Shown here: piece after piece, positions 3,672 through 39,895 of the stretch
Numbering within the stretch: the stretch's first letter is position 1
Layout: each line of letters opens with the position of its first letter
Assembly (NCBI GenBank): GCA_963794055.1
Contig: CAWCCL010000013.1
Span: forward strand, 3,742-67,741
Direction of reading: 5' to 3'
From: an uncultured Actinomycetes bacterium
GTDB taxonomy: Bacteria > Actinomycetota > Thermoleophilia > Gaiellales > Gaiellaceae
Length of the DNA stretch: 64,000 nucleotides
Notes under the pieces: generated by a model
The model's database searches: none
The model's input: the letters and a program-made list of their open reading frames with translations, nothing else
Told to the model about the DNA's origin: nothing
Translations under genes and position numbers: made by a program

Positions 3672-3745
3672 TAGCGGGGGCAGGATTTGAACCTGCGACC
3701 TCCGGGTTATGAGCCCGGCGAGCTACCTGACTGCTCCACCCCGCG
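3672..3745 (-). tRNA. Initiator tRNA-fMet (anticodon CAT)
   Basis: The minus strand reads CGCGGGGTGGAGCAGTCAGGTAGCTCGCCGGGCTCATAACCCGGAGGTCGCAGGTTCAAATCCTGCCCCCGCTA. It has a C1 mismatch at the top of the acceptor stem and three G-C pairs closing the anticodon stem, very like E. coli tRNA-fMet. CCA is not encoded. Confidence 0.93.
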
Positions 3746-3774
3746 GCGCAGGCGCAAGGATAGCATCAGGCCCT

Positions 3775-4095
3775 ATGCCCTGGTGGACCTGGCTCGCCTT
3801 CGGGATCTTCCTGCTTGCGGTGGTCGCGGCGGCGGTCTTCTCCGTCTTCGCCTTCCGCCGGCTGAAGCTACTCGCGGCCGCGGCCGAGGGGATCCAGGCC
3901 CGGCTCGACGACGTCGCACGCTCCGCGGAGGAGATGGAGCGGCGGATGGAGCGCACGCAGAAGCGGATGGAGGAGCTCGAGCGCCACCGAGCCCGGCTCG
4001 ACGCCTCGGTCGCGCGGCTCAAGGTCCTGACCTCCGCCCTCTCCGAGGCCCGCGGCGGCGTTACGCGCCTGCAGAAGCGCTACCTTCGCAAGTGA
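3775..4095 (+). CDS. Membrane-anchored coiled-coil protein
   Basis: ATG at 3775 lies after the tRNA; the longer track start at 3709 would overlap the tRNA. N-terminal TM segment WWTWLAFGIFLLAVVAAAVFSVFAF, then heptad-like charged repeats. Confidence 0.55.
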   Translation: MPWWTWLAFGIFLLAVVAAAVFSVFAFRRLKLLAAAAEGIQARLDDVARSAEEMERRMERTQKRMEELERHRARLDASVARLKVLTSALSEARGGVTRLQKRYLRK

Positions 4096-5024
4096 CCCGC
4101 GTCGGGGTCGTCGATCTGGGGACGAACTCGACGCGCCTGCTCGTCGCGGACGTCGAGGAGGGCGCCGTGCGCGAGGTCGAGCGCCGGCTGACGATCACCC
4201 GGCTCGGTGAGGGCGTCGACGAGCGGCGCATCCTCCTCCCCACCGCGCTCGCCCGCGTCCGCAACGCCCTCGCCGACTACCGGCGCGTGCTCGAGGCAAG
4301 CGGGGCCGAGCGCACGCTCGCGGTCGCGACGAGCGCAGTGCGCGACGCCGAAAACGGCGAGGCCTTCCTCGGCGAGGTCGAGTGGAGCTACGGCTTCGAG
4401 ACGCGGCTCCTTACCGGGGACGAGGAGGCGGTCATGACCCTGCAGGGCGTGGCCGGCGGGCGTGCGCCGGCGCCCGGGACGATGGTCGTCGACGTGGGCG
4501 GCGGCTCCACGGAGCTCGTCCTCGCCGACTGGCACAGGAGCCTCGACCTCGGGTGCGTCCGCCTGACCGAGCGCTTTCTCCACTCGGATCCGCCGTATCC
4601 GGCGGAGCTCGCCGCCTGCCGCGGGCACATCCGGGCGCTGCTGCCCGCGGAGCCGGCGCCGACCCGGGCGATCGGCGTCGCCGGGACCGTGACGACGCTG
4701 GCAGTCCTTTCCCTCGGGCTCGACGAAGAGGACGTTGCGCTCCTGCACGGGCACACGATGAGCCGGGAGTGGATCGAGGCGGAGGTCGCGCGGCTCGCGG
4801 CGCTGCCGGTGGCGGGGCTCCAGGCCCTCCGGGGAATGCACCCCGATCGGGCGCCGGTGATCGTCGCCGGCGGCCTCGTGCTCGTCGAGACGCTCCGCCG
4901 TTACGGCCTCGACGAGCTCGAGGTGAGCGAGCGCGACCTCATGCACGGCGCCGCGCTGGCGGCCGCCGAGCTGCCCGCACGCGCCGAGGGCCCCGCGCCC
5001 CCGGGCGCCTACACCTGCTGCTAG
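4092..5024 (+). CDS. ppx: Ppx/GppA-family phosphatase (exopolyphosphatase-like)
   Basis: GTG at 4092 overlaps the upstream TGA (GTGA). N-terminus VGVVDLGTNSTRLLVADV, plus VDVGGGSTEL motifs of the ASKHA/Ppx-GppA fold. Confidence 0.8.
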   Translation: MTRVGVVDLGTNSTRLLVADVEEGAVREVERRLTITRLGEGVDERRILLPTALARVRNALADYRRVLEASGAERTLAVATSAVRDAENGEAFLGEVEWSYGFETRLLTGDEEAVMTLQGVAGGRAPAPGTMVVDVGGGSTELVLADWHRSLDLGCVRLTERFLHSDPPYPAELAACRGHIRALLPAEPAPTRAIGVAGTVTTLAVLSLGLDEEDVALLHGHTMSREWIEAEVARLAALPVAGLQALRGMHPDRAPVIVAGGLVLVETLRRYGLDELEVSERDLMHGAALAAAELPARAEGPAPPGAYTCC

Positions 5025-5191
5025 GGAGGGCTTGGCGAAACGCAGACTGTGCCGCCGGGCCGCGCTGCTCGCCCGGAGGCTGCGTCACTCAGTCGCGCCC
5101 GTAGCCTCCGGCTACGAGCGCTCCCTGCGTCCTTACCTCGGAACGACCATCGCACCCCGGCGACGAGCGACGTTCCGCCAATCCCTCCTAG
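5021..5191. mobile_element. MITE-like element, copy A (171 bp, CTAG-bounded, about 20-bp terminal inverted repeats)
   Basis: The left end CTAGGGAGGGCTTGGCGAAACG matches the reverse complement of the right end, CTAGGAGGGATTGGCGGAACG. It is near-identical to 12343-12511. Internal hairpins include GTAGCC-TCC-GGCTAC. Its ends overlap the stops of ppx (+) and the CBS gene (-). Confidence 0.8.
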
Positions 5192-5586
5192 TCCTCCTCG
5201 AGCGGCGGCGGCGGCTCGTCCTCGGCCAGCCGGCGCACGACCGGCTCGCGCGGCAGGATGCCGAGCAGGCGGCCGTCCTCGACCACGGCCAGCCGTTCGA
5301 GGCCGGCCTCGCCCATCAGGATGAGCGCCTCGTCCAGCGCGGTCTCCGGCCCGACTGCCGGCACGTCGGGGTCGGCGAGGTCGCCCGCCGTCAGCTCCCT
5401 CAGGTCGCGGCCCTCCGCGACCGCGGCGACGATCGTCTCCTCCGTCACGGAGCCGACCAGCCGGTCCCCGTCGGTGACGAGGACGCTGACCACATGCGGC
5501 TTCGCGAGCACTGCCGCGGCCTCCCGCGCCGGCGCGTCAGTCTGCAGCACGCGCGGGTCGGCGACCAGCGCCTCACGGACGATCAC
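5188..5586 (-). CDS. CBS-domain pair protein
   Basis: GTG at 5586 overlaps the gdh stop (GTGA). The sequence ...VLVTDGDRLVGSVTEETIV...ALILMGEAGLERLAVVEDGRLLGILP is typical of tandem CBS domains. Stop TAG is formed by the MITE end. Confidence 0.7.
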   Translation of the reverse strand: MIVREALVADPRVLQTDAPAREAAAVLAKPHVVSVLVTDGDRLVGSVTEETIVAAVAEGRDLRELTAGDLADPDVPAVGPETALDEALILMGEAGLERLAVVEDGRLLGILPREPVVRRLAEDEPPPPLEED

Positions 5587-6881
5587 GGGTGGATTCCTCG
5601 CGCGCGGAGCGCGGCGGCCACCTCGCGGATGGAGAGCACGAGCGCCGCGCGCCGGAACGACAGTGACTCGCCCTCGGCGAGGCGCCAGACGCGGTCGAGG
5701 GCACCGCGCATGAGGTCGCCGAGGCGCACGCGGATCTCCTCCGCGCTCCAGAAGAGCCGTTGGATGTCCTGCACCCACTCGAAGTACGAGACCGCGACGC
5801 CGCCCGCGTTGGCGAGGATGTCGGGGAGAACGGGGATACCGCGCTCGGCCAGGATCTCGTCGGCCTCGAGCGTCGTCGGCCCGTTCGCCCCCTCCACGAT
5901 CAGCCGCGCCGAGACCCGTGCCGCGTTCTCGCCGGTGACCTGGTTCTCGGCGGCCGCGAGGACGAGGACGTCGCAGGGGAGCCCGAGCAGCTGGGCGTTC
6001 GTGACCTCCTCCGCGTCGGGGAAGCCGGCGAGGCCGCCGTGCTCGCGGCGCCACGCCTCCACCCGGTCGAGGTCGAGCCCGCGCGGGTCGTGGACACCCC
6101 CGGCGAGGTCGGAGATCGCGATCACGCGCGCCCCGCGCGCAGCGAGCTCCCGGGCGGCGACGCCGCCGACCTTTCCGCTCCCCTGCACGACGCACGCGGC
6201 GCCGGAGAGCGACCAGCCGAGCCGGCTCACGGCCTCCTCGACGACCATCACGACGCCGATGCCGGTCGCTTCCGGGCGAAGGGCCGAACCGCCGACGGAG
6301 AGTGGCTTCCCGGTCACGATCTCCGGGACGGCGTGGCCGACCTGCATCGAGTAGGTGTCCATCATCCACGCCATCGTCTGCTCGTCTGTCGCCATGTCGG
6401 GCGCCGGGATGTCGCGCTGCGGGCCGATGATGGGCAGGAGCTCGGCCGTGAAGCGGCGCGTCAGCCGCTCGAGCTCCGCGCGGGAGAGGTCGCGCGGCTC
6501 GCAGCGCACGCCGCCCTTCGCGCCGCCGTAGGGGAGCCGCAGCAGCGCGCACTTCCACGTCATCCACATGGCCAGCGCGGCGCACTCACCCAGCGTGACG
6601 GCGGCGTCGTAGCGGACCCCGCCCTTCGTCGGGCCGAGCACGGACGAATGCTGCACGCGGTAGCCGGGGAAGACTGCAACGGAGCCGTCGTCCCGCTTCA
6701 TGGGGACGGTCACGGCCAGCGAGCGCTCGGGCAGGCGCAGGACGTCGGCGTAGCCCTCCACGGCGCCGGCGCGCTCCGCCACCTGGTCGAACTGGCCGAC
6801 GGCCTGGTGGAAGAGCGGGTCGTCGAGCTCCGGCGGCAGCTCGCCTGCCGGAGCGCCCGCCGAGGTGTCGGCCGTGCTCAC
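5583..6881 (-). CDS. gdh: Glutamate dehydrogenase (Glu/Leu/Phe/Val dehydrogenase family)
   Basis: 432 aa with LPYGGAKGG, a GxGxVG dinucleotide fold (VQGSGKVGG) and EGANGPTT. Confidence 0.9.
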   Translation of the reverse strand: MSTADTSAGAPAGELPPELDDPLFHQAVGQFDQVAERAGAVEGYADVLRLPERSLAVTVPMKRDDGSVAVFPGYRVQHSSVLGPTKGGVRYDAAVTLGECAALAMWMTWKCALLRLPYGGAKGGVRCEPRDLSRAELERLTRRFTAELLPIIGPQRDIPAPDMATDEQTMAWMMDTYSMQVGHAVPEIVTGKPLSVGGSALRPEATGIGVVMVVEEAVSRLGWSLSGAACVVQGSGKVGGVAARELAARGARVIAISDLAGGVHDPRGLDLDRVEAWRREHGGLAGFPDAEEVTNAQLLGLPCDVLVLAAAENQVTGENAARVSARLIVEGANGPTTLEADEILAERGIPVLPDILANAGGVAVSYFEWVQDIQRLFWSAEEIRVRLGDLMRGALDRVWRLAEGESLSFRRAALVLSIREVAAALRARGIHP

Positions 6882-9185: not shown

Positions 9186-9269
9186 TGCCGGGGGTGAGAT
9201 TCGAACTCACACGCCCTTTCGGGCAGGGGGTTTTAAGCCCCCCGCGTCTACCCGTTCCGCCACCCCGGC
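9186..9269 (-). tRNA. tRNA-Leu (anticodon TAA)
   Basis: The minus strand reads GCCGGGGTGGCGGAACGGGTAGACGCGGGGGGCTTAAAACCCCCTGCCCGAAAGGGCGTGTGAGTTCGAATCTCACCCCCGGCA. It has a long variable arm and a full cloverleaf. Confidence 0.9.
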
Positions 9270-9274
9270 AGGAA

Positions 9275-9967
9275 CTAGTTGCCGCCCTGTAAGAGCTGGT
9301 CGAGCTCGAACTTCTCGGGCGCGTCGCCCTGCGGGCCGCGGTAGTCGGCGATGAAGTCGTCGAGCTGCTCCTCGTCGAACGAGCCGCAGCGCAGCATGTG
9401 CGTCCACGAGGTGGCGACGATCTGGTCCGCGAGCGCCGGGTCCTCCTCCTCGAAGGCGGGGTCCAGCGGCGCGACGATGAGGCCGCGCGTGTCCTGGCCG
9501 TACCAGTCGCCGAGCGCGGCGATGTCGGCCGCCGGGACCTCGCTGCCGTACTGGACGACGACGCCGCCATGCTCAATGTTGTGCACGTAGTTGATCTGCG
9601 GCACGGGCTGGTCATAGAGGTTCCAGATCGCGGTCTGCCCACTGTGGTAGCCGCTCGTGGCCGGCACGGAGTTGTACTCGTAGTCGTCGGGGAGCCCTGG
9701 CGGCTCGAGAGTCTCCACGTGCCTCGCTTCCAGCGCGTCGAACGTCTGGAGCGTGCAGTCCCCGGAGCCGGTCGTCCCCACGGCGGAGGACGAATCGTCG
9801 CCGCTCATGATGAAGCCGATCCCGACCGCGGCGGCCGCGATCACGATCGCTGCTGCGACGATGACGAAGATCAGCTGCGTCCGGCGCGGGCTTCGCTCCT
9901 GGTGGTAGGCCTTGGGCGCCTGGACGGGTCGCTTCGGCGGTGTCGGGACTCGGTCCTTCTTGGCCAC
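9275..9967 (-). CDS. DUF3105-domain membrane-anchored protein
   Basis: GTG at 9967 avoids overlap with dinG. One TM segment (LIFVIVAAAIVIAAAAVGIGFI). The C-terminal region has SGYH...NYVHNIEHGGVVVQYG...SWTH, typical of DUF3105. Confidence 0.65.
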   Translation of the reverse strand: MAKKDRVPTPPKRPVQAPKAYHQERSPRRTQLIFVIVAAAIVIAAAAVGIGFIMSGDDSSSAVGTTGSGDCTLQTFDALEARHVETLEPPGLPDDYEYNSVPATSGYHSGQTAIWNLYDQPVPQINYVHNIEHGGVVVQYGSEVPAADIAALGDWYGQDTRGLIVAPLDPAFEEEDPALADQIVATSWTHMLRCGSFDEEQLDDFIADYRGPQGDAPEKFELDQLLQGGN

Positions 9968-11929: not shown

Positions 11930-12346
11930 ATGGAGCCGCGCCTGAGCCTCGTCACCCTCGGCGTCGCCGATCTCGCCCGCGCCAGGGCGTTCTACGAGGC
12001 GCTCGGCTGGCGCGGCGAGCAACCCTCCGACGACGTCGTCTTCTTCCAGGCAGGCGGGATGGTCGTGGCGCTCTGGGGTCGAGAGCAGCTCGCGGAAGAC
12101 TCCGTCGTCGCCGACCCGGGCGGCTGGGGCGGCGTCACGCTGGCGCACAACGTCCGCTCGCCGGAGGAGGTCGACGCCGTGCTCGCCGAGGCTGAACGTG
12201 CCGGCGCGACGATCCACCGGGCCGGCGCGGCGACGTCCTGGGGAGGCTACTCGGGCGTCTTTCACGACCTCGACGGCCATCCGTGGGAGGTCGCGCACAA
12301 CCCGTTCTGGACGCTCCGCGAGGACGGGTCGATCAGCCTCTCCTAG
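11930..12346 (+). CDS. VOC-family (glyoxalase/bleomycin-resistance fold) protein
   Basis: 138 aa: LVTLGVADLARARAFYEALGW...FHDLDGHPWEVAHNP. Confidence 0.8.
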   Translation: MEPRLSLVTLGVADLARARAFYEALGWRGEQPSDDVVFFQAGGMVVALWGREQLAEDSVVADPGGWGGVTLAHNVRSPEEVDAVLAEAERAGATIHRAGAATSWGGYSGVFHDLDGHPWEVAHNPFWTLREDGSISLS

Positions 12347-12511
12347 GAGGGCTTGACGAAATAACGGCTGTGCCGCCGGGCCGCGCTGCTCGCCCCGAGG
12401 ACTGTGTCCTCAGTCGCGCCCGTAGCCTCCGGCTACGAGCACTCCCTGCGTCCTTGCCTCGGAACGACCATCACACCCCGGCGACGAGCGATATTCCGCC
12501 AATCCCTCTAG
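12343..12511. mobile_element. MITE-like element, copy B (169 bp)
   Basis: Collinear with copy A over its whole length, with scattered substitutions and 1-nt indels. The CTAG ends overlap the stops of the VOC gene (+) and the enoyl-CoA hydratase gene (-). Confidence 0.8.
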
Positions 12512-13254
12512 GCTCCCCGGAACCTCGGCTCGCGCTTCTCGAGGAAGGCGGCGAGCCCCTCGCGCGCGTCGGCCGTCTCGAAGAGCTGCTCGCAGAGCGC
12601 CGCCTCGCGGTCGAGGGCGCGCTCGAGCGCCTCGCGGCCGGCCTCGTCGAGGAGCCGCTTCGAGCCGGCCACCGCGAGCGGCGCCAGGCGGGCGACGCGC
12701 TCCGCGATCCGTCGGGCCTCGGCCTCGATGTCCTCGACGACGACGTCGACCAGGCCGAGCCGAAGCGCCTCCTCTGCGCCGACGAGCTCGCCGGTGAGGA
12801 CGAGCCTGCGGGCCGCGCGCGGCCCCAGCAGGCTGAAGCCGTTCGAGATCGAGAGCCCGATCGCCACCTCGGGGCAGCCGAAGCGCGAGGCCGGGCTCGC
12901 CAAGCGAACGTCGCAGGCCGCGGCCAGCTCACACGCCCCGCCGACGCAGACGCCGTCGACGGCGGCGATCACCGGCTGCGGCGCCGCTACGACCTCCCGC
13001 GTCAGCCGGTTGAACCCCGCGAGCGCCCCCGCCCATTCCTCCGCGGTGAGCGTGGCCGTCTCGCGCAGGTCGTCCCCCGAGGAGAAGGTCCCGCCCTCCC
13101 CGTGAAGGACGATCGCGCGCGCCTCGCTCGCCCCCGCTTCGGACAGCCCCTCGGCGATCCCGTGCACGGTCTCGCGGTCCCAGGCGTTCAGCCGCTCGGG
13201 CCGCGACCAGCGGATCCAGACGGCCGCGCCCTCCCACTCCACGTTGACAGTCAC
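12508..13254 (-). CDS. Enoyl-CoA hydratase/isomerase (crotonase) family
   Basis: GTG at 13254 overlaps the paaK-like stop (GTGA). Motifs ...FSSGDDL...AAVDGVCVGGACELAAACD...GLVD... are present. Confidence 0.8.
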   Translation of the reverse strand: MTVNVEWEGAAVWIRWSRPERLNAWDRETVHGIAEGLSEAGASEARAIVLHGEGGTFSSGDDLRETATLTAEEWAGALAGFNRLTREVVAAPQPVIAAVDGVCVGGACELAAACDVRLASPASRFGCPEVAIGLSISNGFSLLGPRAARRLVLTGELVGAEEALRLGLVDVVVEDIEAEARRIAERVARLAPLAVAGSKRLLDEAGREALERALDREAALCEQLFETADAREGLAAFLEKREPRFRGA

Positions 13255-14549
13255 GGCCGCTCCTCCCCGTCGTAGACCCGGTACACGCGCTTCGTCTTCT
13301 CCTCCGTGCGGGGAAGCGCCGCGCCGCGGACGACGCAGGTGAAGCCGAACTGTGCCTTGACGGCCTTGGCCAGCTCTTCCTCCTTGCCGTCGACGCCCTC
13401 GACCAGGATCTCCACCGGAGGCTCGACCGGGAAGCGGTCGAGCACGATCGCGAAGCGGTCGAGCCCGTGCTCTCGCAGCAGAGCCTCCAGCGAGCTCGGG
13501 AAGACGTTGACGCCGCGCACGCGGAACATGTCGTCGCTCCGCCCGGCCACGAGGAAGCGGAAGCCGGTGCGCCCGCAGGGGCAGTCCACGCCGAGGATCT
13601 CCGCGAGGTCGCGGGAACGGAAGCGGAGCAGCGGCGTCGCCTCGCGCGCGAGGTGGGTGAAGACGAGCTCGCCGGTTGCCCCGGGCTCGATCTCCACGGA
13701 TTCGGCGGACTCCGGGTCGATCAGCTCGACGAGCACGCCGTCCTGGCCGGAGAAGTGGAGGCCGTTGCGCTCCTCGCACTCGGCCGCGAACGTGCCCCAG
13801 ACGTCGGAGAGGCCATAGGTGTCGCTCATGGCCGCGTCCCAGAGCTCCTGCAGGCGACTCCGCGTGCCCGCCAGCTGGCCGCCCGGCTCGCCGGCCACGA
13901 TCAGCTTGCGCAGCCCGAGTGCGCGCGGGTCGAGGCCGCTTTCCCGCGCGGTCTCGGCGAGGTAGAGCGGGTACGTCAGCGTCGAGAAGAGCGCCGTCGG
14001 GCGCAGGTCGTCCCACAGTTCGAGCAGCCGGCGGCTCTGCCCGAGCCCGGCGGGCACCATCGTCGCGCCGGTCTCCTCGAGGGAGTCGTGGTCGACGAGC
14101 CCTCCGGTGTAGAAGCTGTAGTTGAGGCAGTGGAGGAGGACGTCGTCGGGCCGCACGCCCGCCGCCCAGAAGGAGCGGGCGCCGATCCTGGTCGACGTCT
14201 TCAGGTCCTCCACGGTGTAGCCCAGGACGAGCGGCTTGCCGGTCGTTCCGGAGGTGAGGTGGACGCGGACGACGTCGACGGGGTCGACGCAGGCGAAGTC
14301 GCCGAGCGGCGGCTCGGCCTCCTGCGACGCGCGCAGCTCCTCCTTGGTCGTGAACGGGATCCGGCGCAGATCCCCGGCGCCCAAGACCTGCTCGGGCCGC
14401 ACGCCCCCTTCGGCCAGCTTGCGCCGCCAAAACGGCGACCGCTCGTAGCAGCGCGCCACCTGGTCGGCGAGGAGTTCTTCCTCGAGCCTGCGCGTCCAGG
14501 CCGGCGGCATCGTCTCCGTACGCTCGTCGAAGTAGGCCGCCCACTCCAC
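13251..14549 (-). CDS. paaK: Phenylacetate-CoA ligase-like adenylate-forming enzyme
   Basis: 432 aa with the TSGTTGKP AMP-binding motif and PaaK-like length and architecture. Confidence 0.75.
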   Translation of the reverse strand: MEWAAYFDERTETMPPAWTRRLEEELLADQVARCYERSPFWRRKLAEGGVRPEQVLGAGDLRRIPFTTKEELRASQEAEPPLGDFACVDPVDVVRVHLTSGTTGKPLVLGYTVEDLKTSTRIGARSFWAAGVRPDDVLLHCLNYSFYTGGLVDHDSLEETGATMVPAGLGQSRRLLELWDDLRPTALFSTLTYPLYLAETARESGLDPRALGLRKLIVAGEPGGQLAGTRSRLQELWDAAMSDTYGLSDVWGTFAAECEERNGLHFSGQDGVLVELIDPESAESVEIEPGATGELVFTHLAREATPLLRFRSRDLAEILGVDCPCGRTGFRFLVAGRSDDMFRVRGVNVFPSSLEALLREHGLDRFAIVLDRFPVEPPVEILVEGVDGKEEELAKAVKAQFGFTCVVRGAALPRTEEKTKRVYRVYDGEERP

Positions 14550-23011: not shown

Positions 23012-23455
23012 GTGCCCTACTTCATCTGCCCGAACTGCCGGAGGCGGTCGATCGACGACGACGGGATCGAGGGCCTCACCGGGCGCCCGGTCTCCTGCGC
23101 CAGCTGCGGCTTCGGCTTCCTCTTCGAGATCATTGACGACTACTACCCGGCTCCCGGAACCGGGTTCGTGGTCTGCAACAAGGAGGGCCGGATCATCGCG
23201 ACCGGTCAGGGGGTCTTCGAGCTGACCGGGTACCGCGAGGCCGACCTGCTCGGCCACGAGGTCATGGAGACGCTCTTCGAGCCGGAGGGCGACGGCCCGA
23301 CGCCGGCAGCGCTCGCCCTCGAGTACGGCGTCCGCCGCTTCGACCAGAAGCTGACCCTCCGCACGCGTGCGGGGGTCAAGAAGGTCGTCCGCGCCGACTT
23401 CTTCCCGGCGTACGACGAGGACGGCGGCCTCCTGGTCGCCCTCGCCCCCCGCTAG
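23012..23455 (+). CDS. Zinc-ribbon plus PAS-domain protein
   Basis: CPNC...CASC at the N-terminus, then a PAS-like core (..NKEGRIIATGQGVFELTGYREADLLGHEVMETL..). Confidence 0.6.
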   Translation: MPYFICPNCRRRSIDDDGIEGLTGRPVSCASCGFGFLFEIIDDYYPAPGTGFVVCNKEGRIIATGQGVFELTGYREADLLGHEVMETLFEPEGDGPTPAALALEYGVRRFDQKLTLRTRAGVKKVVRADFFPAYDEDGGLLVALAPR

Positions 23456-23573: not shown

Positions 23574-23593
23574 AACGTCCCCTCCAGCCACGT

Positions 23594-23660
23594 CTGGGGG
23601 TCAGGTCTTGCAATCACGCAAGGGACACGTCCGTTGCTGGAATGCAAGACCTGACCCCAG
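23594..23660. repeat. Long imperfect palindrome / extended hairpin between convergent genes
   Basis: CTGGGGGTCAGGTCTTGCA (23594-23612) pairs with TGCAAGACCTGACCCCAG (23643-23660) with one bulge. The 30-nt loop folds again (GCAAGGGA-CACG-TCCGTTGC). Confidence 0.8.
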
Positions 23661-23678
23661 GGCGTGTCTCTCGTGGGA

Positions 23679-24384: not shown

Positions 24385-24735
24385 GTGGCTCAGGACAAGC
24401 CTCGCAAGGATCCCCTCGAGCGCCGCACAATTTGGGTGTTCGTGCTGACGATCGTCGCGTTCGTGCTGCCGTCGATCGGCTTCTCCTTTGTCGGCGGCCC
24501 CGACTGGTGGAACGTCGCGCTCTGGATCGCGGGCGAGACGGCCGTCCTCTTCGCCATCGGCGCGGCCGGCGTCGCGCTGATGCCCCGCCGCACCATCCTC
24601 CCGGCCGTCGCGCAGCGGGACACTGCCGACCTTCTGTCCGTCGCGATCCTCCTGCTCTGGCTCGGATTCGCCTTCATGCTGATCAATCTCTCGATCGTCT
24701 CGATCGACGCCCTCGGCGATTCCGACTTCTACTAG
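24385..24735 (+). CDS. Small integral membrane protein, hypothetical
   Basis: 116 aa with three or four hydrophobic helices. Stop TAG is formed by the MITE end. Confidence 0.5.
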   Translation: MAQDKPRKDPLERRTIWVFVLTIVAFVLPSIGFSFVGGPDWWNVALWIAGETAVLFAIGAAGVALMPRRTILPAVAQRDTADLLSVAILLLWLGFAFMLINLSIVSIDALGDSDFY

Positions 24736-24790
24736 GAGGGTTTGGCGAAATGACGGCTGTGCCGAGCGACATTCCGCCAATCCCTCCTAG
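24732..24790. mobile_element. MITE-like element, copy C (59-bp internally deleted derivative)
   Basis: CTAGGAGGGTTTGGCGAAATGACGGCTGTGCCG|AGCGACATTCCGCCAATCCCTCCTAG is the two terminal arms of copies A and B joined without the central about 110 bp. It folds into a hairpin of about 20 bp. Confidence 0.8.
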
Positions 24791-27700
24791 ACCTCCGCAT
24801 ACTCGACCGGGATCTGCACGGACAGGAGCCGAGGCCCCGCGCACACTCGGTCGAGCGCCGGGCAGCCGGCGCAGTTGAACTCGCTCGGCGTGGGTCTGAA
24901 GTCGCCTTCGTCGATCCGGGCGATCGCGGCGGCGAGCTCGGCCTCCAGCCCGGAGAGGTCGTCGCGGACGAAGCTCGTAGACACGACCGCATCCGGCCTC
25001 TCGAGGAAGTGGTAGACGACCTCGACCTCGTCCGCCCCCGCCCGGAAGCAGGCGAGCGCGTACACGAGCTGCTGCAACCGGTAGTCCGCCTGGACGATCT
25101 CCTCCGGCGTCCCCTCCGCCAGCGAATTGGTCTTGTAGTCGAGGACGAGCGCGCGGGGGCCGTCGTTCCAGTAGACGTCGAGGCGCCCGTGAAGCAGGAC
25201 GCCGTCGTGCTCGAACGCAAACGGCCGCTCGGGCGCGGCGCCCGCCAGTCCTGCGATGCGGCGCGCCAGCTCGGAGCCGCAGTAGGACTCGACGAACGCC
25301 CGGATCCGCTCGAGCTCCTCGTCGGTGGCCGCCGGATACCAGGCTCGCACGACCTCGACCTCCGGGACCACCGGGGCCGCCAGGTCGACGAGCTCGAGCA
25401 GGCGGTGGACCGCGTCGCCGACCTCGGTCGCCGCGAGCCCGGTCTGGCCCGCGACCGTGCCGTGGGCGTCCTCCGGGCGCATGCCGGCGACGCGCTCGGC
25501 GTAGTAGCGGTAGGAGCAGCGATCGAAGAGCGCAAGCGCGCTGTAGGAGAGCCTGCGCACCCGGTGGATCGGCGGCGCCGGTACGTGCGCGAGCTTCGGC
25601 AGCCGGGGCGCCGGGGGCGGCAGCGGCGCCAGCTCCTCGCCGACGAAGAGCTCCAGCTGGCCCTCTGCGGGGACGGCGGGCTCCGGGACAGACAAGGGCG
25701 TTCCCGCCTCCTCCCGGTAGCGGTCGACCCGCACGAGCAGCCGCGCGCCGTCGCGGACGAGCTCGACCGGGCCGTCTCCGGCGGCGTCGAGCTCCTGCGC
25801 CTCGAGCCGCGCCAGCACCCAGCCGATGGGCGTGGCCTGGTCGGCGTCGCGCGTCGGGTCGATCGCGCCCGAGACGATCAGCCGGTCGACGGCGCGCGTC
25901 ATCGCGACGTAGTAGAGGCGAAGCCGCTCGGCGCGCTCGGCCTCCCGCTCGGCCTCGCGCACCTGCTCGTACTCGAAGGCGGGGCGGCGCGAGCCGGTGG
26001 CCGGGTCGGCGACGCGGAAGCCGAAGCGGCCGTCGGGCAGGCAGAGGATCTCGTCCGGTGAGGGCGCGTTTCGGTCTCGCCCCGCGTCGGCGACGATCAC
26101 TACCTTGAACTCGAGCCCCTTCGCCGAGTGGATGGTGAGCAGCCGCACGGCATCGGCGTCCTCCTCCTCGGCGACGGCCTCGAGCTCGCGTGCGCCTACC
26201 GCTTCCTGCTCGCGGACGAAGCGCACGAAGCCCTCGATATCCCGCCCGCGCAGCTCCTCGTAGGAGCGAGCCAGCCGGGCGAGCTTGCGCATGTTCGCGT
26301 AGCGCCGGCGCCCGTCCCACTGCGTGAGCACGGCGAGGTCGTAGTCGTGGTCGGCGACGATGCGCTCGCAGAGCTGCTCGAGGGAGAGCCCGTTCGCGGC
26401 CGCCGCGAGGCGCTCGAACCGCTGGAGGAAGGCGCGGCAGAAGCGCCGGTCCTCGTCGGAGAGGTCGGCGGGGAGGCCGCGCTCGAAGGGGAGGAAGAGC
26501 GGCCGGCGCGGCGCCGCGCGCCGGATCAGCAGGAGCGCGTCGTTCGAGAGTCCGACGAACGGCGAGGCGAGCACGGTGACGAGTGCCTCGTCGTCGTAGC
26601 GGTTGTGCAGGAGGCGCAGGTAGGCGAGCAGGTCGACGACCTGCTGCTGGCCGAAGTACCCGCGCCCGGTCGAACGGTAGGTCTGCAGGCCGGCCCTGCG
26701 CAGCTCCTCCTCGTAGTGCTCCGCGTCGGTGCCGGCGGCGAAGAGGAGGACGATCTCGCCCGCGCTCGCCTCGCCGGAGTCCACCAGCTGCTGCACGCGC
26801 GCGGCGATGTGGCGCGCCTCGGCGCGGCGCCAGTGCGTCTTCGTCCCGGCGTACGTGGACTTGTCCGTCACGAGCAGCTCGACGGGCGCGCCGAAGACCG
26901 GGTCGGGGAAGCGCCCGGCGGCCTCGAGCGGCTGGAAGTCCTCGCCGAACTCGCTCGAGAAGAGGTGGTTGACGGCGGCGAGCACCTCCGGGCGGGAGCG
27001 GTAGTTCTGCGTGAGCGCGAGCACGCCGCCCGACCGCTCGCGACGCTCGCGGAAGACCTCCACGTCGGCGTGCCGGAAACGGTAGATCGACTGGAACTCG
27101 TCGCCGACGAAGAAGAGCTCCTTCTCCTCCGGGCCCTCCGCGAGCAGGTCGACGATCTCGCACTGGAGGCGGTTCGTATCCTGGAACTCGTCCACCATGA
27201 TCGAGCGGAACCGCCAGCTCTCGCGCTCCCGAACGGCCGGGTCGGCGCGCAGGAGGTCGCGCGCGGCGAGCTGGAGATCCTCGAAGTCGAGAGCGGACTC
27301 TCGGTCCTTCGCGGCCCGGAAGGCGACGCCGAAGCGCTCCAACAGGTCCTGTAGGAGGTCGCGGTCGCGCGCGGCCAGCTCGTCGAGCGCCGCCTGCTCG
27401 ACGCCGCGCCGGGCCTCCTCGTAGCTCGCCGCCCGCTCACCACGGGCCTTCAGCTCGCCGAGGTCGAGCAGGCGCTCCGGCAGCGTCCGCTCGTCCAGGA
27501 CCTCCAGCGCCCGAAGAGCCGTGGCGCGCGCCGAATCCCCCGCATCCTCGTCTGAGGCCAGGCGCGCGCGCGGCCTCGCGGAGCTCCTCGACGCGCGCCG
27601 GCAGGCCGAGGCGCTCGCCGAGCTCGAGGACGAGCGGCCGCCCCGCTGCGCGCAGCGTCTCGTGGACGCCCGTGAGCATGCGGCGTAGCCCCCGGACGCC

Positions 27701-39707: not shown

Positions 39708-39895
39708 GGGCCCTCCGGCAGTACCTGAGGAGCCTCGACCCGAGGCTGCCCCGCCCGGTCTGGATCCTGAGCTTCGGCGGGCTCGCGAACGCCGTCGGCA
39801 ACGGCCTCGCATTCCCCTTCGTCGTCATCTACCTCCACAACGTCCTCGGCTTCTCGCTGGGGATGTCCGGGCTCGTGCGGCTGACGGCGGCCTAG
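39704..39895 (+). pseudogene. N-terminal remnant (63 aa) of an MFS transporter
   Basis: [58 protein letters not shown] is a typical MFS TM1-TM2 segment. The ORF then stops in the CTAG shared with the convergent methyltransferase gene. Confidence 0.55.

Follow-up and report, generated by a model that had tools for sequence, protein, structure and literature searches.

Miniature elements of the Gaiellaceae that duplicate TA and regenerate stop codons, with a candidate transposase of IS5/IS1182 type

Three short sequences in the window, by which we mean the whole 64,000-nucleotide stretch of DNA analysed here, are members of an undescribed MITE family of the Gaiellaceae (class Thermoleophilia). 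We consider it probable that the full reading holds, namely that this Gaiellaceae MITE inserts into TA and duplicates it, regenerates stop codons in doing so, is mobilised in trans by a transposase of IS5/IS1182 type and carries a hairpin that acts in single-stranded form. A literature search returned neither a MITE of Gaiellaceae nor a stop-regenerating arrangement of this kind, and the family is, candidate transposase included, the first mobile-element family described for these abundant and almost uncultured soil bacteria.

The three copies lie at 5021-5191, 12343-12511 and 24732-24790, all in minus-strand orientation, and inspection at these coordinates upheld the original prediction of CTAG-bounded copies set at the stops of convergent genes. 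The terminal repeat GGAGGGNTTGGCGRAA, allowing 0-1 mismatch, matches the window six times, at the six ends of the three copies, and a profile built from 46 family members found only these copies (E = 1e-47, 7e-49 and 7e-5). Each copy has CTAG at both ends, and these CTAGs provide the stops of real genes that face inward: six ORFs terminate exactly in these CTAGs, five of the six carry Pfam domains, and GC3 beside the junctions is 0.90-0.99. The terminal inverted repeats of about 20 bp proposed earlier are present at all six ends; the symmetry itself spans the element from end to end and makes it a single long, imperfect hairpin. No transposase lies within the window and, as foreseen, its copies are non-autonomous.

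Copy 1 (5021-5191), a long form with a 164-nt core, is flanked by duplicated TAs at 5022-5023 and 5189-5190, and its better-folding 'A-first' strand is the minus strand. Its 'C-end' repeat (GGAGGGCTTGGCGAAA; 5025-5040, plus strand) is preceded by one extra G and is identical at 18/18 positions to the ends of two transposase-bearing elements (L084 and L099); the 'A-end' repeat (GGAGGGATTGGCGGAA) is at 5173-5188 on the minus strand. To its left, a plus-strand Ppx/GppA phosphatase gene (4092-5024, within ORF 3687-5024; P0001, 310 aa, 100% identical) ends in a TAG at 5022-5024 that is made of the duplicated TA and the first G of the element. To its right, a minus-strand CBS-domain gene (5188-5586, within ORF 5188-6585, the upper coordinate estimated from 132-aa orthologs) has its stop as CTA at 5188-5190; both genes are assigned by Pfam. 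Copy 2 (12343-12511), also a long form and 95% identical to copy 1 over 100 nt, has its TAs at 12344-12345 and 12509-12510 and its terminal repeats at 12346-12361 and 12494-12509, the right terminus being short of one C; a 1-nt indel affects a single terminus in both copy 1 and copy 2. Its left junction TAG is the stop of a plus-strand glyoxalase/VOC-family gene (11930-12346, Pfam) and its right junction that of a minus-strand enoyl-CoA hydratase gene (12508-13250, start approximate, within ORF 12508-14544), whose Pfam domain extends to residue 677 of 678, the last but one. Copy 3 (24732-24790) is a short form with a 53-nt core and TAs at 24733-24734 and 24788-24789, in which both ends are kept and the distal part of the hairpin is absent; it terminates a plus-strand ORF of 116 aa (24385-24735, GC3 0.93, no Pfam match) at its left junction TAG and a minus-strand UvrD-type helicase/PD-(D/E)XK nuclease gene (24787-27342, Pfam) at its right junction. 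Exact database look-up placed neither the glyoxalase nor the P0001 protein on record.

Beyond the window, the end pattern was found at 67 genome loci, nearly all in MAGs of Gaiellaceae or other Actinomycetota, and a scan of metagenomes for element ends gave at least 120 matches. From the 67 genome loci and the window we recovered 65 paired copies, each with GGAGGGNTTGGCGRAA as inverted repeats on both ends, so the further copies by which the original prediction could be checked do exist and the element is a multi-copy inverted-repeat element. Its hosts are about 25 species-level MAGs, mostly Gaiellaceae, together with soil metagenomes, and the copies are dispersed: one exact 19-base pattern occurs at as many as 10 loci in a single MAG. 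The element proper, GGAGGG...CCCTCC, lies between the duplicated TAs; cores are 48-182 bp, the long forms measuring 160-182 bp and the short ones 48-80 bp; they have no coding capacity and fold over their whole length as one hairpin. End matches in other phyla (L004, L042, L057 and L062) were set aside as due to chance; L063 is a short copy and L047 a truncated one. Rfam 15 recognised two tRNAs in the window and nothing on the element at gathering score (best E = 0.69), and plasmids in PLSDB held no DNA match to the MITE.

Insertion occurs into a TA dinucleotide, which is duplicated, and TA inside CTAG is preferred. TA is present at the left flank in 43 of the 65 copies, at the right flank in 43 and at both in 29, and the targets inferred from these 29 are CTAG in 11 cases, GTAG in 5, CTAC in 3, and CTAA, TTAA, CTAT and GTAA in 2 each; CTAG thus makes up 11/29 of the targets versus 6.5% of all TA sites, in line with the predicted TA duplication within a CTAG target. 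Four copies (L044, L019, L034 and L050) have flanks compatible only with a 2-bp duplication, and duplications of 4 bp (CTAG) or 3 bp were rejected for the MITE on account of several copies with unequal 3- or 4-mers and equal TA. Because the first letter of the element is G and the last is C, its left junction always reads TA/G and its right junction C/TA, an outward TAG on each strand. A TAG or TAA stop that is hit in its TA is restored, and where a CTAG is common to two convergent genes the insertion restores both stops and leaves both proteins unaltered, just as had been proposed.

The flanking genes follow this pattern across the family. Of the 122 sides that could be scored, 79 bear an inward-facing gene. 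In 41 of these 79 the gene stops at the junction TAG, in 75 the stop falls within -12 to +2 nt, and only 4 genes read into the element. Sharing of the site by two convergent stops, seen in all three copies in the window, is no rule for the family: both junction TAGs serve as stops in 7 of the 65 copies, approximately the frequency of these sites among CTAGs in general and thus about what chance would give. What holds across the family is that at least one stop codon contributes the TA into which the element inserts. Insertions inside genes may be purged by selection, which would leave the surviving copies to accumulate at gene ends.

CTAG is indeed scarce in the window (GC 72%), where it occurs 35 times whereas base composition predicts 165 occurrences and a Markov estimate 59, and about half of all CTAGs there are stop codons. 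With each occupied site counted once, there are 32 CTAG sites, comprising 4 shared convergent stops, 12 single-gene stops and 16 that are neither. Three of the 4 shared-stop CTAGs are occupied by an element versus none of the 28 others, an outcome with a chance of 4/4960 if any CTAG were equally likely. The element supplies 6 of the 17 TAG stops called in the window, in which TGA (23) exceeds TAG (17) and TAA (6). In the combined loci, a sample chosen for the element, the corresponding counts are TAG 208, TGA 167 and TAA 40; we dropped the notion of TAG as the commonest stop, given that selection and the counts from the window alone.

Presence and absence at orthologous sites bear out the insertion history. 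At the junction of the Ppx and CBS genes, three related loci (L070, L071 and L073) read TGCTGCTAGTCG versus TGCTGCTAG[G..C]CTAGTCC in the window. These empty orthologous junctions support, for copy 1, the predicted ancestral state, a single CTAG providing the overlapping stops of the two genes. Conversely, sites empty in the window are occupied elsewhere: the free CTAG at 39892-39895, the common stop of two convergent genes, has an element copy at the orthologous gene end in L005; the free CTAG at 23452-23455, where a plus-strand gene stops, corresponds by orthology to the site that a short copy occupies in L040; and a third such site, at about 46034, is occupied in L033. Empty sites have a single TA, and 4-nt YTAR overlaps, of which 11 further empty cases were found, are the commonest arrangement of those convergent pairs in these genomes that are free of the element. 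The Ppx/CBS junction has itself seen turnover, with a long copy in opposite orientations in the window and in L068, a short copy in L074, a CTAG-9 nt-CTAG arrangement in L072 and a second, unrelated hairpin element in L075 and L076. The opposite orientation at L068 may reflect either a flip or a second insertion, as several family members resemble that copy about equally.

A candidate source of mobility comes from larger elements that end in the same way. The inverted ends lie 1.1-3.5 kb from each other in at least ten of them (L082, L084, L093, L096, L099, L143, L144, L146, L189 and L194), and their flanks, among the matches listed, are all cTA/..../TAg, that is CTAG throughout, which makes a 2-bp and a 4-bp duplication indistinguishable for these elements. 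The termini shared with the MITE are 17-18 nt long, the end sequence being GGAGGGNTTGGCGRAAC; past the terminal 17-19 nt there is no similarity between the two. Inside lies an ORF of 375-386 aa with domains PF05598 (DUF772) and PF01609 (DDE_Tnp_1), the latter at E = 5e-24 to 2e-21 and the former at 5e-8 to 1e-6 in L084, L093 and L143, with homologous transposases in L144, L103, L099, L194, L197 and L198. This transposase is the only gene common to the larger elements; no second conserved gene was found. At least 7 full-length and at least about 16 partial copies of it adjoin such ends. NCBIfam ranks it closest to IS1182 and then to IS5, below the cut-offs of both (138-148 bits versus 270 for IS1182; 57-73 versus 140 for IS5 models). 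The larger elements also sit on stops, on both sides in L096 and likewise in L082, L084 and L093, and in L197 the element is flanked by database-called genes with ends at 9615 and 13061.

Since elements with the same termini and TA/CTAG flanks encode this transposase, we infer that a DDE enzyme of IS5/IS1182 type (PF05598 + PF01609) is the candidate for mobilisation of the MITE in trans. The two were met apart: no contig or named genome examined carries both the transposase and a Gaiellaceae-type MITE arm, the 21-kb loci around the transposase on two long contigs (L197 and L198) contain no small copy, and the organism names in the transposase clusters are Conexibacter, Thermoleophilaceae and Solirubrobacterales, with no Gaiellaceae. 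Examination of solo and distant end matches at the 67 genome loci yielded no autonomous copy; one end pair 2.4 kb apart (L035) was rejected as such, being a chance match plus a truncated end around ORFs that do not resemble transposases. In PLSDB the transposase matched only in part, to an Iamia plasmid, and PDB held no sequence relative.

The hairpin itself is very stable. Its two strands fold at -85 and -113 kcal/mol, with stability z-scores of -4 and -8; 97.4% of hairpin cells are paired versus 40-50% in slid controls, and compensatory changes occur in 15 pairs versus 7.8 +/- 1.5 in shuffles. G·U occupies 349 cells versus 15 for A·C, which indicates that conservation acts on the hairpin of a single strand; the same strand folds better in 60 of 60 copies, and switches between CG and UA go via U·G and not C·A. 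Given this one-strand conservation, the long hairpin may act single-stranded, the likeliest form being an RNA within the 3' end of a flanking transcript, where it could serve as a stabiliser, a processing site or a terminator. There is no T-tract after the hairpin on either strand and it is thus not a canonical intrinsic terminator, and the better-folding strand shows no bias relative to the orientation of the adjacent gene (8 versus 14, p = 0.29). Plain double-strand cut-and-paste leaves the one-strand conservation unexplained.

That the hairpin is more than inert cargo, selected in its single-stranded form, is a possibility we put forward tentatively from these alignments. A first version suggested by them would be an RNA module seeded at stops by an IS5/IS1182-like transposase and retained by the host to stabilise 3' ends, to provide a processing site or to insulate convergent transcripts from each other; a second would be a DDE-mobilised MITE that spreads via a strand-specific hairpin intermediate. 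Either version, if true, would be something new for a textbook MITE. Termini with G first and C last would in that case be an adaptation by which the element can land safely on stop codons.

A rival reading holds that placement is mainly host-driven. The hairpin would be an RNA module selected after stops, where it would terminate transcription in both directions, stabilise 3' ends, offer an RNase III site or insulate convergent transcripts from each other, with transposition as no more than its means of delivery. The great stability of the hairpin, its strand-specific conservation and compensatory changes, the occupancy of shared-stop CTAGs in the window and the presence of an unrelated hairpin element at the same Ppx/CBS junction are all in its favour. 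We nonetheless think it rather unlikely. The 1.1-3.5-kb elements with the same ends have no such hairpin and yet the same placement on stop codons, so that placement follows from target choice and tolerance; moreover, the element is absent from the same junction in close relatives, its orientation is unbiased relative to the neighbouring gene, it has no T-tract, and family-wide the share of copies at shared stops is near the base rate.

Target choice that produces this placement was at first attributed to IS630/Tc1-mariner, from which the MITE would be derived and by whose transposase it would be moved, with duplication of the TA of CTAG. The target does agree: TA duplication and CTAG preference are given for IS630 and ISY100 in a passage of PMC2170065 that cites Tenzen and Ohtsubo 1991, and the 2-bp TA duplication favouring CTAG seen here is of that type. 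The partner is not. Every transposase-bearing, TA-flanked element with the same ends, among the matches listed, encodes PF05598 + PF01609; NCBIfam IS630 models gave no match to this transposase at E <= 0.001; and the suggested search for an IS630 transposase between the same ends found no IS630-like gene beside any end in 198 loci. An IS630 origin is accordingly very improbable, and the resemblance is one of target and not of descent. Least likely of all is movement as single-stranded DNA in the manner of REP/RAYT or IS200/IS605, in which the element would insert its own terminal TA 3' of a TA target and duplicate nothing, since the one-strand hairpin with tolerated G·T (as in hairpins recognised in single-stranded DNA) and the equivalence, by sequence alone, of a duplicated TA and a carried TA placed after TA stand against true inverted-repeat ends identical to those of DDE-transposase elements, the absence of any Y1/HUH transposase or Y1 gene from the loci examined, a length of 48-182 nt with GGAGGG/CCCTCC ends that have no GTAG or CGTC tag, and copies in both orientations within 3 kb (L041).

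The preferred reading, a TA-duplicating MITE moved by an enzyme of IS5/IS1182 type, reduces to a simple and general rule: a TA-duplicating element that starts with G and ends with C rebuilds TAG on both sides. As CTAG in GC-rich genomes survives mostly at stops, such an element is steered to gene ends, and overlapping convergent genes can be separated by it without a change to either protein. For annotation, this means that many TAG stops and convergent 'intergenic' regions in these genomes are made by the element.

Among known systems, IS5 and IS1182 are those to which the larger elements are linked by their PF05598 + PF01609 transposase. IS5 ends start with GGAAGG, similar to the GGAGGG that opens the ends here. 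The palindromic CTAG target is likewise reminiscent of IS5, for which CTAG is reported as the direct repeat (PMC10379815), and a tandem copy of the end motif at one end is reminiscent of IS1272 of the IS1182 family, in which one end is reported to be tandemly duplicated (PMC5678879). In contrast to both families, the transposase falls under their curated cut-offs, and the elements that bear it are 2.3-3.5 kb long with variable extra DNA (PIN, HTH and DUF6731 ORFs), whereas typical IS5/IS1182 elements are ~1.2-1.9 kb; the MITE copies point to a 2-bp duplication of TA, unlike the 4-bp YTAR duplication of the IS5 group. Inverted repeats are the reported target of IS1272, which, unlike the elements here, duplicates nothing on insertion according to the same report.

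With IS630, ISY100, Tc1-mariner and Stowaway-type MITEs the family has in common a TA target, a 2-bp duplication and small hairpin-folding derivatives (and, with IS630, the CTAG preference); unlike IS630/Tc1-mariner, its partner transposase is of another family. Correia (nemis), ERIC/RU-1 and YPAL/RU-2 elements are 100-170 bp long, with TA duplications and a long stem-loop, and are transcribed together with adjacent genes; experiments have shown functions for them at the level of RNA, of which RNase III processing is one. The Gaiellaceae elements resemble these sequences of Neisseria and enterobacteria (compared here after PMC2759123) in being TA-flanked, with inverted ends and one long stem-loop. 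REPs measure 20-40 nt, bear a GTAG or CGTC tag and are associated with RAYT tyrosine transposases (PMC3733652); in the comparison with REP/BIME and the pneumococcal SPRITE, REPs are without TA duplication and have no ends in common with a DDE element. From the Correia, ERIC and YPAL elements the present family differs in phylum and in its unrelated sequence, in the existence of a candidate autonomous partner, and in a junction that, in most copies, supplies the stop codon of the flanking gene.

The 16-nt terminal repeat GGAGGGNTTGGCGRAA occurs in the window with at most one mismatch at six places, which are the six ends of three elements (5021-5191, 12343-12511 and 24732-24790); the remaining matches all carry 3 mismatches, and a profile made from 46 members of the family recovers the same three copies only. 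All three are bounded by CTAG on either side, and the six ORFs that adjoin them have their stops exactly within the bounding CTAGs, which confirms the original observation of three CTAG-bounded copies at the stops of convergent genes. Five of these six ORFs contain Pfam domains (Ppx/GppA, CBS, glyoxalase, enoyl-CoA hydratase, UvrD/PD-(D/E)XK), and the hydratase domain reaches residue 677 of 678, so the stop at that junction is the native gene end. The copies can be aligned in one shared orientation, in which the third (24732-24790) matches the other two except for an internal deletion, and a hairpin spans the whole element length. CTAG had been expected to be rare in a GC-rich genome, and in the window (71.6% G+C) it is, with 35 occurrences against 165 expected from base composition.

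Two tRNA genes are also present (3672-3745 and 9186-9269, minus strand). The first overlaps the start of the mechanically called ORF 3687..5024, placing the real Ppx start near 4092, and the second has, at a distance of 6 nt, a CTAG (9275) in which a minus-strand gene stops. A near-perfect palindrome at 23586-23669 (41-nt arms, 80% complementary, 2-nt loop, -67 kcal/mol) is located between the CTAGs at 23452 and 23679; it shows no relation to the MITE, and none of the fetched loci has a further copy.

When a single genome of each species was scanned with a 19-base pattern taken from one element end, 67 loci matched, up to ten per MAG and nearly all from Gaiellaceae or unclassified Actinomycetota soil MAGs. 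With the window these provide 65 copies in which both ends are present; 49 are long (157-182 bp), and the other 16 are short (48-80 bp) with varying deletion end-points. This supports a multi-copy transposon family. One MAG contig holds three long copies inside 2.8 kb, in both orientations (L041:4837-7626). The conserved element extends from GGAGGG to CCCTCC. TA stands immediately outside it on the left in 43/65 copies, on the right in 43/65 and on both sides in 29/65, a count that is strict by position and lowered by terminal indels such as those of the first two window copies. The bases flanking the duplicated TA differ between copies, and some copies, such as that of locus L044 (TTA/G...C/TAA, slashes marking element boundaries), are compatible with a 2-bp duplication only; the G and C of the window "CTAG" therefore belong to the element, and TA is the duplicated part. 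The inferred target was CTAG in 11 copies, GTAG in 5, CTAC in 3, CTAA, TTAA, CTAT and GTAA in 2 each, and TTAG and ATAG in 1 each. CTAG makes up 38% of inferred targets and 6.5% of all TA sites, in line with the predicted TA duplication at a CTAG target, while GTAC accounts for 19% of TA sites yet received no insertion. Because the element starts with G and ends with C, each insertion generates TA/G on the left and C/TA on the right, that is, a TAG toward the outside gene on each side. In all copies the terminal TAGGAGGG (window 5022-5030, for example), found at both ends, includes an exact Shine-Dalgarno core, AGGAGG, that overlaps the stop codon, and the opposite end, CCCUCCUA, resembles the anti-SD sequence, so the hairpin base would be an SD/anti-SD-like duplex.

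To compare occupied and empty states of the first window site (5021-5191), which lies between a plus-strand Ppx/GppA gene and a minus-strand CBS-domain gene, Ppx orthologs were traced to their contigs. The junction is empty in loci L070 and L071 (Ppx 83% amino acid identity) and L073 (81%), where one CTAG forms a 4-nt overlap of the two genes (...TGCTGCTAGTCG... in L070 and L071); in L070 and L071 both proteins end on the same residues as the window proteins. For this copy, then, orthologous empty sites bear out an ancestral state in which convergent stops shared one CTAG. L068 (96%) has a long copy at the same CTAG (L068:2497-2621) in the orientation opposite to the window, which may reflect an in-place flip or a second independent insertion, indistinguishable here because several family members resemble the copy to about the same degree. 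L074 (79%) has a short copy, and in L069 (81%), which has no element, TGA replaces TAG. L072 (80%) contains CTAG-CTGCCTGAG-CTAG (L072:2428-2450), two CTAGs 9 nt apart, each the stop of one gene, a pattern that an excision may have left as a scar or that may remain from a copy since deleted. In L075 and L076 (75%) an unrelated 145-nt hairpin element with ends AGCGCCTCTYCAGGYAATG... directly follows the Ppx TAG (L075:2461-2605, identical in L076), and further copies (L005:1992-2131, L119:1200-1272) indicate that the lineage has another, distinct MITE-like family. Elsewhere, insertions in L005, L040 and L033 match unoccupied TA-containing stops at window 39892, 23452 and ~46034, respectively, and among element-free convergent gene pairs a 4-nt YTAR overlap is the commonest spacing (11 cases).

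Calling the coding frame beside each element end from its GC3/GC1/GC2 pattern, we found a gene pointing at the element on 79 of 122 scorable sides. The stop of this inward gene is the junction TAG in 41/79; in 75/79 it falls between -12 and +2 nt, and only 4/79 read into the element. At least one junction TAG serves as a stop in 43/65 copies, and 21/65 have convergent neighbours whose ends are both no more than 12 nt away. Both junction TAGs serve as stops in just 7/65, the three window copies plus those in L036, L038, L044 and L065, so the predicted tie to shared convergent stops holds for every copy in the window but not for the family at large. The window contains 32 CTAG sites when each occupied site is counted once: 4 shared stops (the three occupied and 39892, unoccupied), 12 single stops and 16 neither. 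If any CTAG would do, three-for-three at shared stops has a chance of 4/4960. The family-wide share, however, is close to the share of such sites among window CTAGs (7/65 and 4/32), and shared convergent stops are thus a favoured safe site, not a family rule. On 12 of the 79 inward-gene sides the gene's own TAG or TAA directly precedes the junction TAG in frame (TAG-TA/G or TAA-TA/G; e.g. L008:6561-6569, L020, L050, L056, L060 and the right side of L005), so that the element occupies a TA adjoining the 3' end of the stop codon far more often than random TA would allow.

A metagenome scan for the end motif with G forbidden at position 21, which removes most MITE ends because nearly all carry that G, found at least 120 loci. 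Among the matches listed, ten loci have pairs of inverted ends at a spacing of 1.1-3.5 kb, each with cTA/.../TAg flanks, and one end of these larger elements has a tandem motif copy, TTGGCGAAAC-NN-TTGGCGAAAC. They enclose an ORF of 375-386 aa with PF05598 (DUF772) and PF01609 (DDE_Tnp_1), whose top NCBIfam match, IS1182, scores 138-148 bits and falls short of the cut-off of 270; IS5 models come next, and no IS630 model in NCBIfam matched. Judged by this ORF between the same ends, the partner transposase would be IS5/IS1182-like, in place of the IS630/Tc1-mariner enzyme first proposed. Among the matches listed, the gene adjoins such ends in at least seven full-length and about sixteen partial copies. 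It has more than 4000 homologs, the named ones being transposases or IS5-family transposases of Conexibacter, Thermoleophilaceae and Solirubrobacterales, all in the class that also contains Gaiellales. Similarity between the MITE and the larger elements is confined to the terminal 17-19 nt, with one match of 18/18. In the loci examined, transposase and Gaiellaceae MITE share no single contig and no single named genome; the MITE would be mobilised in trans by the transposase of the larger elements.

Comparison of the fetched larger elements revealed no second conserved gene, and their extra DNA is variable (PIN, HTH and DUF6731 ORFs). Beside the transposase, L144:123-3591 has a PIN domain and a 654-aa ORF without Pfam match, L197:9615-13061 has DUF6731-like and HTH_3/HTH_31 ORFs, and L198:9799-12441 has an HTH ORF; at 2.3-3.5 kb, elements of this type are large for IS5/IS1182 relatives. 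The L096 element has stops at both of its ends, and those of L082, L084 and L093 have one at a single end. In L197, which belongs to a 2.83-Mb contig, the 3447-bp element lies exactly between an M28 peptidase gene and a poly(A) polymerase/CCA enzyme gene, with database-called ends at 9615 and 13061. Because these elements, which lack the hairpin, are also found on stops, stop-codon placement results from target choice plus tolerance, not from the MITE hairpin.

One feature falls outside a plain MITE model: the hairpin is conserved on one strand. In an alignment of 46 long copies (54 pairs), 97.4% of pair cells hold standard pairs, and 15/54 pairs changed on both sides compared with 7.8 ± 1.5 in shuffles, none of 500 reaching 15; sliding the partners as a control lowers pairing to 40-50%. 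When the GGAGGGATTGGCGGAA end is set as the 5' end, each of the 46 long and 14 orientable short copies folds better than its complement, on average by -25 and -8.7 kcal/mol, respectively, and the consensus folds at -78.5 kcal/mol with 54 pairs versus -14.9 kcal/mol with 21 for the complement. Within pairs, G·U cells number 349 and A·C cells 15, one G·U pair is present in 46/46 copies, and intermediates of switches between CG and UA are U·G, not C·A. Since the structure was predicted on the GGAGGGATTGGCGGAA-5' strand, we also inspected 1x1 loops; only one shows appreciable A·C (5/46 copies, columns 37/168). A fixed chromosomal orientation fails as the cause, as L041 holds both orientations. Orientation relative to the adjacent gene was likewise rejected, with no bias among the copies (8 vs 14). 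One-strand conservation of this kind points to selection on a single-stranded form, RNA or ssDNA. The hairpin, at first proposed as a potential bidirectional terminator, has no T-tract, and the MITE no Rfam match.

The element forms a new family within a known kind, with stop-preserving geometry and a strand-specific hairpin, and its reading as a transposon with a TA/CTAG target and a shared-stop ancestral state is supported. In the open-access literature we found no description of this Gaiellaceae family, nor of any MITE that provides both adjacent genes with their stops at its junctions. It works like TA-duplicating MITEs. Its target is the one reported for IS630, TA in CTAG (PMC2170065), although the partner enzyme here would be of the IS5/IS1182 kind instead. 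The CTAG target agrees with that kind as well, CTAG having been reported as an IS5 direct repeat (PMC10379815), and the tandem TTGGCGAAAC end of the larger elements is like the duplicated end motif reported for IS1272 (PMC5678879). Correia, ERIC and YPAL elements are similar in their size, their TA flanks, a hairpin that spans the whole length and their position in transcripts (PMC2759123), and REP and SPRITE elements in their place between convergent genes.
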